This document shows, piece by piece, positions 3,042-50,052 of a DNA stretch of 64,000 nt. The position numbers were made by a program, and so were the translations under genes. This DNA is from a virus. Its lineage: Duplodnaviria; Heunggongvirae; Uroviricota; Caudoviricetes. The notes beneath the pieces were generated by a model. It was given only the letters and a program-made list of their open reading frames with translations. It searched no databases and was not told the origin of the DNA. The stretch is from the IMG/VR virus record IMGVR_UViG_3300015177_000008, positions 47,519 through 111,518 of that record. One strand, 5' to 3'. The first letter of the stretch is position 1, and every line of letters begins with the position of its first letter.

Positions 3042-3418
3042 TTCCCCTCCAAACAAACGTATGCTACAGATTAACTACCTAAAAATTGAGTTTAACACTA
3101 ACTCATGTAATTAATACTAATGCAAGAAAATATTCACTAATATTTTTATCTTTTAGTTATAAACTAAATTTACATGTGGCTGTTTTGCAAAATGTAGACT
3201 TCCTATATTTTTTATGAAATGATTAGGAAAATAAATTTATTTTATAGCCTTAACACTATGGTCAATACATTTCTTAACACCCAATGCCATCACGAATGAA
3301 CTAAGGAAAAGCGGAATGGCCTTTGACGTTAAAATGCTCTAACTGGAGGTTGTTCATGTGTTTTTCTCTTATCGTTTAGTTACTACATTCTTACACAAAC
3401 CAAGTAAGTGTTTACCTA

Positions 3419-5105
3419 TCATTTAACGCGTTTGAAAACGTATACGCTGACTGTGATCCCTGTGTCTTCAAACTCGTTGGTAAACGACTTCCCTCTGGCA
3501 TAAACGTAATTATCCATCGTCATCCAGTCCAGTATTGGCGCAGTGCCCGGCAATACTGCTACAAGACGCCCGCCGACTTTCAGATGCCCCAGCGCAGCCA
3601 GCGTGTGCTCTCTATGACGACCAAGCGAGTACGGCGGGTTCATAACGATTTTGTCGAACTGATAACCTGCGTTGTCCTCAGACCACTTTATGAAGTCGCA
3701 GCAAATCGTGTTCGTATACCCTTTTCCACGCAGGATATCAGCAAAGAGAGGTGCGATTTCTATGCAGGTAACATCTTCCAGATCGGCGTTAATATAGGCC
3801 AGAAGATCCCCACGTCCGGCTTGAGGCTCCAACAGCTTCTCACCAGGCTTCAATTCAGTGGCTCTTGCAACGTACTCAGCAATCAAGCGTGGGGTAGGGT
3901 AGAACTGGTGTGATTTTGTATCCGGTATTAAACCGGTAGCCACAATCGTATTTAGCGTATGGCCGATGTCATACGGGAACTGCCAGTGCTTTTTCTCCTG
4001 CACGCCGCCAATGAAGCTCAGTGTGCGCTCAAGCTCTTCCACCTGCGACTTCTGGAGAGCTGAATCAGAGAAGTACCATACTCCTTTGTCTTTGCTCAAT
4101 CGCCCGTCACGAAGCGCAGTGCGAACCGGGACGGAGATCGTCTTCTGGATTAGCCCGAACTGCTTTGGTGCCCGTGTTTTTTGGCGCTCTGCGGCATGGC
4201 GCGGGGATTGCTGCAGGCATACTGTAAGCCAGCACCTCATTCAACTTCCAGGCCACGTCAGGATGTATTTCAAAGTGAACGTTGCCGTTCTTGAACATCT
4301 TCACGCGCATCAGATTTCCATCGACGTTCATCCAGTCACCGGTCTGGCAGTCGTTTGCCCGATACGCAGCTGATAGCACCTCAGCAGTGCGGTTGATGGT
4401 AATAAATTCTTTGTGCGCGAAGAAATGAAGCAAAACACGCAGATCGTCGATATAGTCCTCTTTGCGATAGTTCACACTAACGCTGTCCCGCCAGAAATCA
4501 GAAATGCAGTCAGCGATTATCAGACGCTCGCTGAAACCGTTCGTCTTATTTGTCTTGTGCGCAGGACTCAGCGCCTTAAACAAGCCATACACGCGCTCGG
4601 AGAGATATTTGTGCCTGTCATTCAGCAAATTAAGCATCGTTGGTATGACCGTTTCTGCTTTGAACTCCGGTACACCAACGAACTCTTTAACCTTCATCTG
4701 ATAGCCGGTTCTGTCAGTTTTGATGACTTCCTGCTTGCCCTCGATAAATTGCTCACGCCACTCGTCGCGACGGGAAGCTGGCATGATCAGCAAAACGTTA
4801 GTCATATCCGTGACCTTCCTCCAGTACTCGGCCCAAATATTCTGTTTCACCCATTCCAGATCGACTTTATCCAACCAACCTCGATTTAAACGCGAGCGAT
4901 CTTCATCTGGTCGATGGTTTAGTCTCAGCAGGCGATTAATCATGTTGTGGCGTTCGTCGCCATAAACGAAGTCGTGTACCTGATACATGAAGTCGATCTC
5001 TTTCTCGCACTCGGCCACGATTTCGTGGATGACATTCATTTCCTGACGATAGTCGATAGCCGTGTTTGAGCTGGCATCGTCGATGATGGAAAGGGCTGTA
5101 TTCAT
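3419..5105 (-). pseudogene. SAM-dependent methyltransferase-like gene (NPPY motif, DUF4942-like), disrupted by a frameshift
   Basis: Two overlapping minus-strand ORFs in different frames (4107..5105 and 3419..4240). The downstream frame carries EPQAGRGDLL and IVMNPPYS motifs; the tail of the first and head of the second look like out-of-frame sequence. Confidence 0.5.
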
Positions 5106-8370: not shown

Positions 8371-8390
8371 ATAGGTAAACACTTACTTAC
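8371..8390. promoter_or_regulatory. Class-2 AT-rich palindrome (ATARGTA...TACYTAT family)
   Basis: ataggtaaacacttacttac, overlapping the rnhA stop codon. Confidence 0.3.
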
Positions 8391-8980
8391 TGATTATTGT
8401 AAACAAAACCAATATCTTTCTTGTGAGGCGTATCTGCTGCGGAAAAAGCTGCGATCTTCGCCAGTCGATCACAGATTTCATTTTCACGATGCCCGGCGTG
8501 GCCTTTAACCCACTTCCAGCGAACATTATGTCGACTGGCAGCCTCATCCAGACGCTTCCACAGATCAACATTCTTTACTGGTTTTTTATCAGAAGTCATC
8601 CATCCATTACGTTTCCACCATTTCATCCACTGTGTCATGCCGTTTTTCAGATACTGGCTATCAGAGTGCAAAATAACGTTGCATGGATATTTCAAACGCT
8701 CCAGCCCGATAAGTGCCCCCATCATCTCCATGCGGTTATTGGTGGTGCTATGAAAACCATCTGAGAACTCGCGTTCCTCTCCACGATACTGGAGAACGAT
8801 ACCGTAACCGCCTGGGCCACCCGGATTTTTAAGGCAAGAGCCATCACTGAAGATTTTCACGGTTTTAAGCTGGGGATTGAACTCTACGACAGGCGTTGTG
8901 GGATTGGTGCGGGGAGAATTTTTGTTTTTGGCTTTTTTGCGAGTTTTTTCTTGCGATCGGGCTGGTGTCTTCGTCGTCAT
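8387..8980 (-). CDS. rnhA: Ribonuclease H
   Basis: ATG at 8980 with AGGAG upstream; RNase HI motifs ([32 protein letters not shown]). Track ORF extends upstream to 9034. Confidence 0.8.
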
Positions 8981-9039
8981 ATAAACTCCTGAATCAAGCG
9001 CCGCGCCGATTTTTTTCCTCGCGCGTGCGCACACGCGTG

Positions 9040-9560
9040 CGTGTTAATAATTATTAAAATAAACAAATTACTTCCCAGAACAGGTTTTTATAAACCTGAA
9101 CTGAACGAACGAAGTGAGTGAAGTTCACCTCGAACGAAGTGAGAGGTTGTCTTTTCAGGTAATACTCTCCCAGGGAGGTGAGTATAAAAATCCCTCACCA
9201 ACCTGGTCGTTTCATAACCTGAAAAGTTATGGCCTAAGTCTACTGCCAGCTTAGACTTGGGAAGTTATGGATGACAGCACCCCAGAACCGAGATCTTCCC
9301 ACACTTTATGAAGGGGAGTACTGGATTCAACCTCTCGAAACACCCCAGACTCGACAATCATAAAGTGACCCTTGTCTCCGCTCACTTTGGTTCCCCCTTC
9401 CCCGACACCTAAACGGCACCGGTTCTACGCTGGTAGTGAGCTTTTTTAAACCTGACGCCAGTGACGCTTACCCCCACCCATCAGGTCGAGTCTCCAGTCT
9501 ACGACTGGAAACTATCAGATCTTAGCACTTACAATTCATTTTATGAATAGTTTGTACTTA
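9040..9560. other. About 520-bp non-coding region with dense nested hairpins and short direct repeats (candidate structured RNA or origin-like region)
   Basis: No ORF of 60 aa or more; paired segments cttttcaggt/acctgaaaag, ggtgag/ctcacc, aagtcta/tagactt, ccagtc/gactgg; direct repeats gaacgaagtgag x2 and caccccaga x2; GC near 50 percent. Confidence 0.3.
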
Positions 9561-9564
9561 TCTA

Positions 9565-9795
9565 TCATTTCGATTGATTATTTTCTCGACCATGTAGTTG
9601 AACATTCAAGGCAAACACCTCGTTGATCAACTCACCTAAAAGCTGTTCAACAAGTTCGCGATGCTCCCCAAGATGCAAGCACTTAATTGCCCATTCGTAC
9701 AAGTTGAAAGCCTGCTCGCGGTCTTTCATCATTTCACGAGCCTTAGCCAGAAAATCGCTCTCTACGAGCGCAACAACATTGGTCGGGTATGGCAT
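9565..9795 (-). CDS. Hypothetical protein (76 aa)
   Basis: ORF in minus-strand gene array. Confidence 0.4.
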   Translation of the reverse strand: MPYPTNVVALVESDFLAKAREMMKDREQAFNLYEWAIKCLHLGEHRELVEQLLGELINEVFALNVQLHGRENNQSK

Positions 9796-9903
9796 GTTAG
9801 TTTTCCTTAAAGTGGTTCATAAAATCGATTTTAAAGCGTCTGGGAAGGGGTTCTAGTGGATTCTGTAGTGATGTTCAGGTCTGGAGTCTCTGATACAAAA
9901 CAG

Positions 9904-9958
9904 CCTGTTTCCGTATATTAATAATTAATATGTAGTTATTTATATATACAGAAGCAGG
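9904..9958. repeat. 55-bp element with 16-bp terminal inverted repeats (copy 1 of 2)
   Basis: cctgtttccgtatat ... tatatacagaagcagg around an AT-rich core; second copy at 57862..57916. Confidence 0.5.
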
Positions 9959-10488
9959 CTAATTACAGACGCCAGAACAAACTAAGCAGCCTTCTTTGAT
10001 GGTCTTTTTTTTTCTGACCACATTCGCAGGATCATACCCTCCCAGACTTTTCATGACGTCCAAAGGGATCTTGCTTATAGAGTGCCCAGCGTCCTGACAG
10101 AATCCTCGAAAAACAACGAGCATACTGCCACCGGGGTTGATGTTTACTTCTACCTGACCCAGATTGACGTCAGGCTCGACAAACGCTACGCGGCCACCAG
10201 ACAGAATAATCGTCTCATTCGCACACTCTGTTGCACGCTCATACCACTTTGTATCTAGGGATTGAGGAAGGCAATTGTACCTGGCTGTCCCCATTCAGAT
10301 TTCAAAGCATCACGCTCAACGCCTATGAAATTAGGCAGCTTTGCATTGTCCTTGTTGCAGGCAACGTCAACATCAAATGTCACTCCAAGATAACGTTGAA
10401 TGGCAGAAAACAGCCAGTCAGGTGTTCTCCAGAGGTCACGAAGAGAGTTGTCGCGCTTTCGCTGTTTGATTTTTTCGGCTGCAATCAT
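9959..10488 (-). pseudogene. Phage-type DNA N6-adenine methyltransferase (Dam family), disrupted
   Basis: Two ORFs in different frames: 10255..10488 ends ...GTIAFLNP-stop where NPPY/F is expected; 9959..10294 carries the downstream LPxxLDTKWY block. Apparent internal deletion plus frameshift. Confidence 0.5.
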
Positions 10489-37328: not shown

Positions 37329-37657
37329 TGATGCCCGCCAATTGGCGGGCATCTGTTCTCTGTAAAGGTGTCTGGCATCGTCTGGTTCGTTAACGTTTAC
37401 TAAACCAATGGTGACAAAAATTAGTTATCTTTGAAAAATAAAGGTTGCATGAAAAGAAGGGGTATGCGTTAATAGCATCGTTGGTTTGCAAGACAGACCT
37501 TATGTAAGCAGTTTTAGTAAAGCAGTCTCAGTTCAGTGTTATCTTCTGATTTCCCTTCTTCGTGAGTCTCCTCCTTAAGTGCCTAAGTAAGTCCCAATCT
37601 ATACAGATCAAATTCTCGCCGCACTATGTGGCTCACAAAATTAAGAAGGTAATATCT

Positions 37658-37873
37658 ATGTCTAATAAAATGACTGGTTTAGTAAAATGGTTTAACTCTG
37701 ATAAAGGCTTTGGCTTTATTTCTCCTGCTGATGGCAGTAAAGATGTTTTTGTACATTTTTCGGCAATTCAGAGTAATAATTTCCGCACTTTGGAAGAAGG
37801 CCAGCAGGTCGAATTCTCTATCGAGAATGGGGCTAAAGGCCCAGCAGCAGCAAATGTCGTTGCTCTAAGCTGA
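37658..37873 (+). CDS. Cold-shock protein, CspA family
   Basis: [38 protein letters not shown]... (RNP1/RNP2 motifs); long 5' leader of about 160 nt; track ORF starts upstream. Confidence 0.85.
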
Positions 37874-38151
37874 TTCAACGCTGATGATCCTCATTTCTAC
37901 AATAACGAAGACGGTGTAAGCCTGAGTGGATAGATTTGTAGGATTGTACAAGTTGAATAAATTAGCATGGTAAGGCCATGCTAATTAAATCGACACAACG
38001 GCCAGTTTATTCCATAAAAGTGAATTGCCCATTGTGGCGAAATGCGGGGTTGCCGCATGAATAGTCAAAGGCAGAAGCTAACTGCCGGCATGGCAAAACA
38101 AAGTGCGTAAGAGGAGTGACTTCCTCAACAAGCGCCATAATTCTTTATAAA

Positions 38152-47363: not shown

Positions 47364-47573
47364 ATGACAATCACCGAGTTACGCCGATGCACTGTATAAG
47401 TAAACAGTATATTAGGCATAGATTCTTATAGGATCAAGAGTAAAAGTAACTCATTTTCAGCAATGATTCCATACATAGTAGGTATGGAATCATTTTGACG
47501 TTGTTTTTTGAATTTTAAGGGAAATGGGAGTGAGTTTGGTGGGAATAAAAACGGCTCCTGTGAGCCGTTAAAA

Positions 47574-49448: not shown

Positions 49449-49535
49449 TGGCGGAGAGTAATGGAATCGAACCATCATCGCTTGCGCAATGGGACGGTTT
49501 TCAAGACCGCTTGAGCACCATGCTCCCTACTCTCC
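49449..49535 (-). tRNA. tRNA-Ser (anticodon UGA), type II
   Basis: Manual fold: acceptor GGAGAGT/ACTCTCC, anticodon loop CTTGAAA, long variable arm, T-loop TTCGATT, discriminator G, encoded CCA. Confidence 0.7.
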
Positions 49536-49679
49536 GGCCGTTGTGGTGGCCGGTACTGAATCTCCGGCATACGGTGCAGCCAATTAGGACTACGGACGAT
49601 CACCGCTCGCGAAAGGGAAGATTTGCGGCCGCATTTCCCTAACATCCAAGAAAGCTATCGCATCAGTCTGCGAATCCAC

Positions 49680-49759
49680 CACAACGGTAAGATCACTACC
49701 TTTCGACCAGTCATTGTGCACATGAACGACGATTAACCGTAATGATCTTATCGTTGTGT
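49680..49759. repeat. Long hairpin B (16-bp stem, 1 mismatch)
   Basis: cacaacggtaagatca ... tgatcttatcgttgtg. Confidence 0.5.
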
Positions 49760-49809
49760 TGTGAAGCCAGATGCTTATCTTCTGGTTGCTTCAAAGAGCT
49801 GCACTTCCT

Positions 49810-49897
49810 CACAACGGTAAGAGCACTGGTCTGACTCTATCGATTTACGGGCTTGTGGGTCAGTATCGCCGATTCGCCCAATGCTCTTACCTGTTGT
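49810..49897. repeat. Long hairpin C (16-bp stem, 1-nt bulge), 2 nt after tRNA-Thr
   Basis: cacaacggtaagagca ... tgctcttacctgttgtg. Confidence 0.5.
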
Positions 49898-49899
49898 GT

Positions 49900-49975
49900 T
49901 GGTGCCGGTTAACGGGATCGAACCGCTGACATCCTGCTTACAAGGCAGGCGCTCTACCAACTGAGCTAAACCGGC
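49900..49975 (-). tRNA. tRNA-Thr (anticodon UGU)
   Basis: Manual fold: acceptor GCCGGTT/AACCGGC, D-arm GCTC..GAGC, anticodon stem CCTGC/GCAGG with loop CTTGTAA, T-loop TTCGATC, encoded CCA. Confidence 0.8.
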
Positions 49976-49977
49976 AT

Positions 49978-50052
49978 TGGCGATGGTGGGTGGATTCGAA
50001 CCACCGACCAGTTGGTTAACAGCCAACTGCTCTACCGCTGAGCTACACCATC
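49978..50052 (-). tRNA. tRNA-Asn (anticodon GUU)
   Basis: Manual fold: acceptor GATGGTG/CACCATC, anticodon stem GTTGG/CCAAC with loop CTGTTAA, T-arm GGTGG TTCGAAT CCACC, encoded CCA. Confidence 0.8.

Follow-up and report, generated by a model that had tools for sequence, protein, structure and literature searches.

The window, as we refer to the whole stretch of 64,000 nucleotides (nt) analysed here (positions 47,519 to 111,518 of the IMG/VR record IMGVR_UViG_3300015177_000008), is by its sequence an SSU5/pHCM2-like phage-plasmid. An original prediction, made from the letters alone, had singled out the region at 9040-9560 as non-coding and highly structured, and had offered a structured non-coding RNA (ncRNA) or a lytic replication origin as candidates. 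The location was described correctly: the region is bordered by rnhA and by a small open reading frame (ORF) of 76 amino acids (aa), none of the ORFs inside it exceeds 46 aa in any frame, and its GC content of 0.44-0.53 is coding-like, as in the adjacent coding DNA. The functional unit is slightly offset and extends on the minus strand from a -35 box at about 9547 to the end of a U-rich tract at about 9050. This element, here termed type A, is located between the 76-aa ORF and rnhA within a T4-like replication/recombination module (UvsY, gp32-like single-stranded DNA-binding protein, SbcCD, Pol III alpha/epsilon), and the RepA (IncFIB) plasmid replicon lies 17 kb from it. Annotated records list no feature in the region, except for over-extended rnhA calls and a single 44-aa 'hypothetical protein' in Escherichia phage Cyrano. 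The features of the locus are the following:

8387 to 8980, minus strand: rnhA (RNase_H Pfam match, E = 1e-44)
9050 to 9070, minus strand: end of the conserved core and U-rich tract, with the last conserved bases ..GGGAAGUAA / ..CUGGGAAGUAA (to ~9068); probable 3' end and putative non-canonical terminator
9251 to 9385, minus strand: 44-aa ORF (CYRAN_81, 'hypothetical protein' in Cyrano), not a real gene
9512, minus strand: G at the predicted transcription start, conserved, 7 nt after the -10 box and at the base of the 5' hairpin
9519 to 9527, minus strand: putative extended -10 box (TGcTAAGAT) of the sigma-70 type, conserved in position
9542 to 9547, minus strand: putative -35 box (TTCATA), 17 nt upstream of the -10 box
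9565 to 9795, minus strand: 76-aa ORF, the other neighbour of the element

To determine the conservation of the element, 84 loci were collected from phage records, plasmids and IMG/VR, and about 50 more from metagenomes as well as two Kluyvera genomes were added later. The core (~9068-9490) was 89-96% identical across elements of Escherichia, Salmonella, Klebsiella, Enterobacter and Citrobacter, whereas dam, the 76-aa ORF, rnhA and the next ORF (164 aa) reached just 73-83% identity in the same genome pairs. Conservation peaked between about 9100 and 9480 and dropped steeply on either side. Such slow change in non-coding DNA, three to five times below the rate of the adjacent coding sequences, implies strong selection at the nucleotide level. 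All loci encoding a close homologue of the 76-aa ORF possessed the element with at least 89% identity. A distant-mode homologue search in phages returned the same 12 records and nothing new, the GTDB genomes added only the two Kluyvera loci, and the search of IMG/VR and metagenomes yielded many loci, all at least 89% identical and none more divergent. No partial similarity to the element was found on E. coli chromosomes.

For the 0.8 kb around the element, matches of 97-98.5% were obtained in the Escherichia phages CMS-2020a, PhiR41_1 and Cyrano, and one of 87% in Salmonella phage SSU5. The element region also matched 689 plasmid records in PLSDB, originating from Klebsiella, Escherichia, Enterobacter, Salmonella, Citrobacter and Cronobacter. 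Eight of these plasmids were retrieved, and each was typed as IncFIB. Among complete E. coli genomes, 232 of 5426 (4.3%) carried the element, which was plasmid-borne in 232 of 234 places. It also occurred in Salmonella Typhi plasmids (e.g., LT904895) and in phage-plasmids of K. pneumoniae.

Evidence for transcription of the element came from published RNA sequencing (RNA-seq) of E. coli LF82 carrying Cyrano (Misson et al., 2023; PMC9928086), whose core is 97% identical to that of the window. In Table 1 of this study, CYRAN_81, the 44-aa ORF inside the element, appears at 12-fold over the local background in LB lysogens and is listed among the expressed 'morons'. The S1 Table covers five conditions: LB overnight, bacteria without macrophages (B1, B6) and macrophage samples (MB1, MB6; MB6 at 6 h post-infection). 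Across these, log2(fpkm+5) (fpkm, fragments per kilobase per million mapped reads) was 6.8-10.35 for CYRAN_81, 3.1-5.8 for CYRAN_80 (the 76-aa ORF) and 2.6-5.0 for CYRAN_82 (rnhA) (Misson et al., 2023). By these published counts for an internal feature of 135 nt, strand-specificity unstated, the spot reached 12-40 times the level of both flanking genes in lysogens, which shows that it is transcribed in lysogeny, probably as a unit distinct from both. Its level and pattern resembled those of the repressor CYRAN_45, and the signal of the element rose inside macrophages.

A putative sigma-70 promoter precedes the core. Its -10 box is of the type TA(A/G/C)(A/G)AT, and 10 of the 12 representative lineages inspected show the extended form TGnTA(A/G/C)(A/G)AT; in L010 and L011, both from Klebsiella, the box reads TAGAAT without an in-register TG. 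The -10 columns T94, T97, A98, A101 and T102 were invariant in the alignment. Every lineage has TT(T/C)A(C/A/T)(A/T) as -35 box at the same alignment position, and the sequence of the 17-nt spacer varies. This promoter was not listed by a simple promoter scan. The predicted start is directly followed by a 5' stem-loop, the sequences of which are unrelated in at least six lineages and form a hairpin in every one (arms, e.g., TCCAGTC/GACTGGA, CTGGCAGA/TCTGCCAG, ATTTCGA/TCGAAAT, CTTCCGGA/TCCGGAAG and GCTTTC/GAAAGC). At the opposite end, a U-rich run occurs 2-3 nt past GAAGU in every lineage, differing in sequence, and is followed by a variable A+T-rich spacer. The low rnhA read counts in lysogens suggest that transcription terminates, or that the RNA is processed, at this tract. 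As the tract is not a canonical terminator, the 3' end can only be inferred; likewise, the exact ends and the strand are deduced, the latter from G-U pairing, the promoter and the orientation of the neighbouring genes.

The region was found to be highly structured, as had been claimed: the minus strand folds with a minimum free energy of -183 kcal/mol, as compared to -147 +/- 6.7 kcal/mol in shuffled sequences (z = -5.4). To obtain a consensus fold, an alignment of 65 distinct sequences in minus-strand sense (A2) was analysed by RNAalifold, which resulted in 122 pairs in 18 helices. The main parts of the fold are, from 5' to 3' of the RNA:

9489 to 9513, minus strand: 5' stem-loop of 11 base pairs (bp), dG -15.2 kcal/mol, directly after the predicted start
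9449 to 9487, minus strand: helix H1, a long hairpin with a GNNA-type loop (GUAA/GAUA/GGUA/GAAA)
9380 to 9441, minus strand: helix H2 (9441-9436 with 9385-9380), enclosing H3 (9422 to 9402) and the G-rich single strand GGGGAAGGGGGAACC
9302 to 9367, minus strand: helices H7-H10, an irregular long hairpin with the base CACUUUAUGA/UCAUAAAGUG; inverted repeat 9302-9311/9358-9367, 100% complementary
9232 to 9256, minus strand: helix H13, hairpin CCUAAG.../...CUUAGG
9152 to 9225, minus strand: helix H14 (arms 9151-9163/9214-9226) with the enclosed hairpin H15 (9206 to 9170; arms 9170-9182/9194-9206), the long-range pairing noted earlier
9075 to 9146, minus strand: 3' domain, H17 with both 13-nt direct repeats (CUCACUUCGUUCG in RNA sense) and H18 (9104 to 9075)

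Within this fold, 99.8% of the pair cells were standard pairs, as compared to 38-49% when the partners were slid, and eight pairs had changed on both sides. Compensated cells numbered 89, as opposed to 23.6 +/- 4.8 with shuffled partners (0 of 500 shuffles reached the observed value), and the covariation score was 0.071, as opposed to 0.007-0.025 for partners slid by one to three columns. Thus, pairing is kept by compensatory substitutions among the homologues. Fourteen pairs are mainly G-U, and canonical pairing of 99.8% on the minus strand fell to 88.8% when the sequences were read as plus strand. The clearest case was H1, in which ACCUGAUG/CGUCAGGU is changed to GUCUGGUG/CACCAGAC in one Klebsiella clade and to AUCUGAUG/CAUCAGAU in another. 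Three of its pairs changed on both sides (AU<->GC in 14 sequences, CG<->UA in 17 and AU<->GC in 13), in addition to UG<->UA, with zero broken cells. Double changes also occurred in H2, H7, H13 and H18. Pair 74-132 of H2 was found as UA (34), CG (19) and UG (12), and pairing of the enclosed H3 survives GU/GC/AU changes and an indel. In H7-H10, one pair alternates between CG and UA and several between UA and UG, and the L073 group lengthens the distal stem by paired changes. Within H13, pair 260-282 occurred as CG (49), UA (13) and UG (3), pair 261-281 as CG (64) and UA (1), and pair 259-283 as GU, GC and AU. The stem and loop sequences of H18 vary by lineage with pairing retained (UA<->GC in 9 sequences).

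The nested inverted repeats described earlier are real. The 10-bp pairing cttttcaggt/acctgaaaag proved to be longer than claimed, with arms of 13 nt (92% complementary) in H14, and does enclose a smaller hairpin, H15; as both are invariant or nearly so, covariation speaks neither for nor against them. The short direct repeats were also present, as an exact 13-mer CGAACGAAGTGAG at 9106 and 9131 (plus-strand 9106-9118 and 9131-9143); both copies are invariant and 25 bp apart. The 3' segment folds with z = -4.7. In addition, the RNA carries repeated CUCAC boxes and one GUGAGC box, between which complementarity amounts to at most about 12 nt, with mismatches. Three quarters (75%) of the unpaired core columns were invariant or nearly so, indicating a constraint that exceeds secondary structure.

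To identify related RNAs, the whole window was scanned with the 4227 models of Rfam 15 at the gathering thresholds and the stretch 8900-9950 in a permissive scan (E up to 10). The gathering scan retrieved only cspA and two tRNAs. The best permissive match in 8900-9950 was an HCV stem-loop (E 0.079; 21 bits at a threshold of 56 bits), so that Rfam offers no family for the region. ARAGORN identified no tRNA or tmRNA in the region. A literature search on SSU5/pHCM2 ncRNA or origin, or on the 13-mer, returned nothing relevant other than the LF82 transcriptome. Neither Rfam nor RefSeq/GenBank annotation nor the searchable literature was thus found to describe this RNA.

The element is not linked to rnhA throughout. 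In the Citrobacter plasmid pRHBSTW-00524_2 (L009, 1-318), betT, encoding a choline transporter, takes the place of rnhA, while type A and its U-rich tail are intact. We further considered plasmids in which the homologue of the 76-aa ORF is just 45-51% identical (pCAV1015-111 of K. oxytoca; K. pneumoniae subsp. ozaenae CP027615). These keep the gene order, dam and the small ORF followed by a gap of ~570-650 nt and then usually RNase H. Here, the gap holds a distinct structured element of ~400 nt, termed type B, which was found in 30 Klebsiella plasmids (L208 2740-3215, i.e., pCAV1015-111; L209, L211-L214, L269-L277), unannotated and absent from Rfam. No homology between types A and B was detected by nhmmer --max, and the Smith-Waterman score equalled the shuffle mean. 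The layout of type B is like that of type A, a -35/-10 pair and then a GC-rich hairpin with covarying sequence, and type B displays many compensated helices and a covarying textbook intrinsic terminator, UUCGGCC...GGGCCGAAG-U7. In two type B plasmids (L211, L214), the next gene is convergent instead of RNase H. The replacement by betT and the convergent neighbours of type B indicate that the RNA unit travels with the upstream small ORF, independently of rnhA. Replacement of rnhA was also observed in L048 and L068, with breakpoints inside the GC-rich tract upstream of rnhA and with RNA element and tail intact.

The element is thus transcribed in lysogens, more conserved than its coding flanks, subject to structure-preserving substitutions and devoid of a conserved frame. 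Together with the strand-specific G-U pairs and the conserved promoter, this supports the first candidate of the original prediction well, and we consider it likely that the element is an independently transcribed structured ncRNA gene. According to this explanation, a constitutive sigma-70 promoter (-35 at 9547-9542, extended -10 at 9527-9519) would start the RNA at about 9512. The RNA would comprise ~450-460 nt, beginning with a protective 5' stem-loop followed by a multi-domain fold of about 18 helices, and would end at a junction helix and the U-rich tract (~9067-9050), before rnhA. It would be made in the plasmid-prophage state and not be co-expressed with its neighbours.

With regard to function, we tentatively propose that the RNA may work in trans during lysogeny, as a fold that binds a conserved host or phage protein and not as a long antisense RNA. 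This proposal is based on the invariance of three quarters of the unpaired positions, on the absence of complementarity of more than 12 nt to the RNA elsewhere in the window, which by coordinate estimate includes the repressor and repA regions, and on the survival of the RNA when the downstream gene is replaced. The same absence of longer complementarity in the rest of the window renders a long antisense RNA unlikely. SSU5/pHCM2-type phage-plasmids are common in clinical Enterobacteriaceae, and the control of their lysogeny is essentially uncharacterised. An RNA that is as abundant as the repressor, raised in macrophages, slow in evolution and missed by annotation would therefore provide a testable handle on maintenance or host effects, and the two elements add one, probably two, new large structured RNA families.

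Several points weigh against the reading as an ncRNA gene with a function in trans. The plus strand also folds better than its shuffles (z = -5.0), and the comparison of strands is biased by the use of the minus strand for the structure prediction. The covariation stems from few independent lineages, about four to six, and most helices are invariant and hence outside the covariation test. Both ends of the RNA were placed from sequence, the RNA-seq table counts only the annotated ORF of 135 nt, and PMC9928086 is silent on whether the gene counts are strand-specific. A terminator scan found no canonical intrinsic terminator in type A. As no partner or target was identified, the mode of action is deduced only.

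A serious, if unlikely, alternative is that the element acts in cis as a leader or regulated terminator, similar to lambda PR'-6S RNA-tR' and to the leader of the phage P4 immunity region. In lysogens, the constitutive promoter would fire and transcription would stop at the end of the leader, with the stable RNA as a by-product, and during lytic growth an antiterminator or structural switch would allow transcription into rnhA and ~10 kb of co-directional genes; such a role could coexist with a function in trans. In favour of this, the element lies directly ahead of a long gene block that runs in its own direction, the U-rich tract of type A or the clean terminator of type B lies just ahead of rnhA, and the lysogen signal is high on the leader and low downstream. 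The downstream genes include one for an antirepressor (Ant) in SSU5 and one of the Rha family in pCAV1015-111, and the CUCAC and GUGAGC boxes could pair alternatively. However, the element is kept with betT (L009) or a convergent gene (L211, L214) downstream, its ~400 nt of near-invariant sequence are far beyond the needs of an attenuator, and no mutually exclusive terminator/antiterminator pair was found. In addition, rnhA seems to have a control region of its own, as suggested by AT-rich -10-like and GC-rich blocks that are conserved between it and the element. A riboswitch or attenuator leader specific to rnhA was rejected, since linkage to rnhA is not obligate and no competing terminator/antiterminator folds were identified.

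The proximity of rnhA and of the replication/recombination module would also suit an RNA-primed (R-loop) origin, in which the transcript hybridises to the downstream AT-rich DNA and is cut to a primer by the adjacent phage RNase HI. The RNA is structured, ~450 nt long and driven by a sigma-70 promoter, and past its end lies a 27-nt stretch of 96% A+T; the RNA is also G-rich with G runs and is expressed in the plasmid state. We nevertheless regard this as improbable, as a RepA (IncFIB) replicon exists 17 kb away, type A is retained without rnhA, and type B, from which rnhA can also be missing, closes in a strong intrinsic terminator. Moreover, the scan revealed no antisense promoter/terminator unit like that of RNA I, no T run follows the plus-strand complement of the 5' hairpin, and the 76-aa neighbour is not Rop-like. 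For this small helical protein, no PDB sequence match was obtained, and the fold search returned generic helical-bundle matches only (predicted local distance difference test score of the model 74). More generally, the lytic replication origin, the second candidate of the original prediction, was not supported: the element is expressed in lysogeny, the analogous element of distant relatives closes in a clean intrinsic terminator, and no DnaA box (at most one mismatch, 8800-9800), no skew switch and no GATC enrichment or clustering were detected. An origin of the iteron/DnaA type was discarded on the same grounds, with only two 13-mers instead of an iteron array, no skew inflection and RepA at 17 kb distance, even though the stretch of 96% A+T does exist. 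A duplex DNA site with incidental hairpins, i.e., a protein-dependent origin, a recombination/resolution site or a mobile mini-element, appears very improbable. The high nucleotide conservation, the two exact 13-bp repeats at a distance of 25 bp and the 46-nt block (42/46) that unrelated metagenomic phages, AT-rich and T4-like, carry as an inverted pair would agree with such a site, but compensatory changes and G-U-specific pairing are unexpected for duplex DNA, the promoter is conserved, a transcript was detected, and the repeats make up less than 10% of the conserved core. Finally, the coding sequence annotated as CYRAN_81 in Cyrano and its listing among the expressed morons would point to a small protein gene or the decayed remnant of a larger one, which we consider hardly conceivable. 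Of the 65 distinct sequences, 18 carry indels (-1, -2 or +1 nt) that shift the frame and one more has a stop within it, with the downstream nucleotides still conserved; there is no match to a Pfam or PHROG family and no longer ORF in any frame, and the peptide lacks the hydrophobicity of type I toxins. CYRAN_81 was thus rejected as a protein gene, the frameshifted gene remnant that the original prediction had held against its own reading did not emerge, and the published 'moron protein' annotation is corrected by the ncRNA reading.

Large structured ncRNAs on mobile elements have precedents in GOLLD, ROOL, RNA II and the immunity RNAs, and the element belongs to none of these families. Like ColE1/pMB1 RNA II, it is a structured plasmid RNA of ~500 nt with a constitutive promoter and expression in the plasmid state, here next to an RNase HI gene and an AT-rich stretch; the phage T4 ori(uvsY) and ori(34) transcripts are other RNA-primed examples. 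Unlike the ColE1/pMB1 system, which employs RNA I, Rop and the host RNase HI, no antisense RNA I unit was found and RepA-type replication is encoded elsewhere; the element ends at a U-rich tract/terminator instead of an RNA-DNA switch, persists without rnhA and has no sequence or Rfam relationship to RNA II. The P4 CI, N15 CB and P1/P7 c4 RNAs, immunity RNAs derived from leader transcripts, are similar in being prophage RNAs of (phage-)plasmids with a constitutive promoter upstream of lytic/antirepressor genes on the same strand, and in having internal repeated boxes and a complementary box. However, these are processed RNAs of ~70-80 nt, whereas the element has a conserved fold of ~450 nt; the permissive Rfam scan retrieved no such family, and no target boxes were found elsewhere in the window. 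With GOLLD and ROOL, the 'ornate' ncRNAs of phages and prophages, the element shares the large size, the multi-domain organization, the strong conservation and a phage-type carrier, but it lacks an Rfam match, is shorter, lies 40 kb from the tRNA cluster (49.4-50.1 kb) and is expressed in lysogeny.

The lambda 6S transcript, the constitutive and terminated leader of the late operon, is an RNA of ~194 nt that serves as the unit of Q loading and termination. Like this PR'-tR' product, the element combines a constitutive promoter with a short terminated lysogen RNA directly upstream of a long lytic operon. In the element, selection acts strongly on both sequence and structure, and the element has survived loss of the downstream gene. 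Type I toxin mRNAs such as hok/sok are likewise structured, abundant plasmid transcripts of ~400 nt with long-range pairing, and the element has been listed among 'morons' (PMC9928086); it has, in contrast, no conserved small hydrophobic ORF, and no family match emerged from the Rfam scans. A type I toxin-antitoxin system with a hok-like mRNA was therefore rejected, as a conserved ORF is absent and the peptides are not hydrophobic.

The allelic arrangement of types A and B in a fixed slot is unusual. A third conserved occupant may exist in Moellerella-type relatives (L210 ~3390-3760; L278 ~2430-2770), which lack both types and share a non-coding block of 77% identity ~0.7 kb downstream of the small ORF. 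With two sequences only, this block displayed 10 compensated pairs in forward and 7 in reverse direction, so that the indication is weak. For the type B and type C loci as well as for L125, the Rfam scans returned nothing. It is conceivable, although speculative, that in SSU5-supergroup phage-plasmids a fixed slot of the replication module, following the gene for the 75-76-aa helical protein, holds interchangeable, unrelated structured RNAs (type A, type B and perhaps the Moellerella block), each constitutive in lysogeny, and that these constitute a new class of RNA determinants of phage-plasmid lifestyle. If so, the RNA cassettes might define immunity or incompatibility groups or, alternatively, might capture a conserved host protein, keeping the element quiescent or protecting the host.

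Further observations concern the repeats of the 3' domain. The stretch 9098-9146 (plus strand), which contains both 13-nt repeats (ACTGAACGAACGAAGTGAGTGAAGTT....TCGAACGAAGTGAGA), matched a block with 42/46 identities in contigs of unrelated metagenomic phages that are AT-rich and T4-like (nhmmer E = 2e-8). In one of these, L125, the repeat block is found at 9028-9075 (plus) and, inverted, at 9205-9254, ~130 nt apart, and further cases are L137, L151 and L207. Such copies are intergenic, beside genes that resemble T4 gp55 and gp47 by translation alone, and do not conserve the hairpin that separates the repeats; by its sequence, the inverted pair looks like a miniature inverted-repeat transposable element or a protein-binding module. 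The 13-mer also occurred in tandem arrays of a few other viral contigs, no significant extra copies were found in the window, and a loose repeat-pattern scan of IMG/VR yielded mostly chance or unrelated tandem repeats, one phage lineage excepted.

At the flanks of the element, a short palindrome around TAAGTA is located at the stop codon of the small ORF (~9550-9563, minus strand; also in L003, L208 and others), represented by GGTAAGTACTTACC in SSU5 and TAAGTAAnnnTTTACTTA in type B. In both RNA types, it touches the putative -35 box or overlaps with it, so it could be an operator. On the other side and outside the RNA (9011-9043), a GC-rich tract of 24 nt with perfectly alternating pyrimidines and purines (9020-9043; CGCGCGTGCGCACACGCGTGCGTG), prone to form Z-DNA and partly palindromic, is followed by an A7/T7 run (9011-9017), both just upstream of the rnhA ribosome-binding site. 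The alternating tract is kept in all lineages that retain rnhA and is truncated in L009 and L068, in which other DNA has taken the place of rnhA; it may serve as an operator or as a structure in the rnhA 5' untranslated region (UTR). Beyond the small ORF, the gene for the phage Dam (N6-adenine methyltransferase; 9959-10488, minus strand) is broken in the window. Compared to PhiR41_1, it has a deletion of ~90 nt and an insertion of 1 nt near the 3' end, and its split into ORFs of 77 and 111 aa indicates that it is probably a pseudogene. Farther away, a cluster of three tRNA genes (Ser-TGA, Thr-TGT, Asn-GTT) is located at 49449-50052 (minus strand), 40 kb from the element. At 37480-37898 (plus strand), the window contains a full-length match to the 5' UTR of the cspA thermoregulator (Rfam RF01766, 186 bits), indicating that the phage-plasmid carries a cold-shock-type gene with its own RNA thermosensor.

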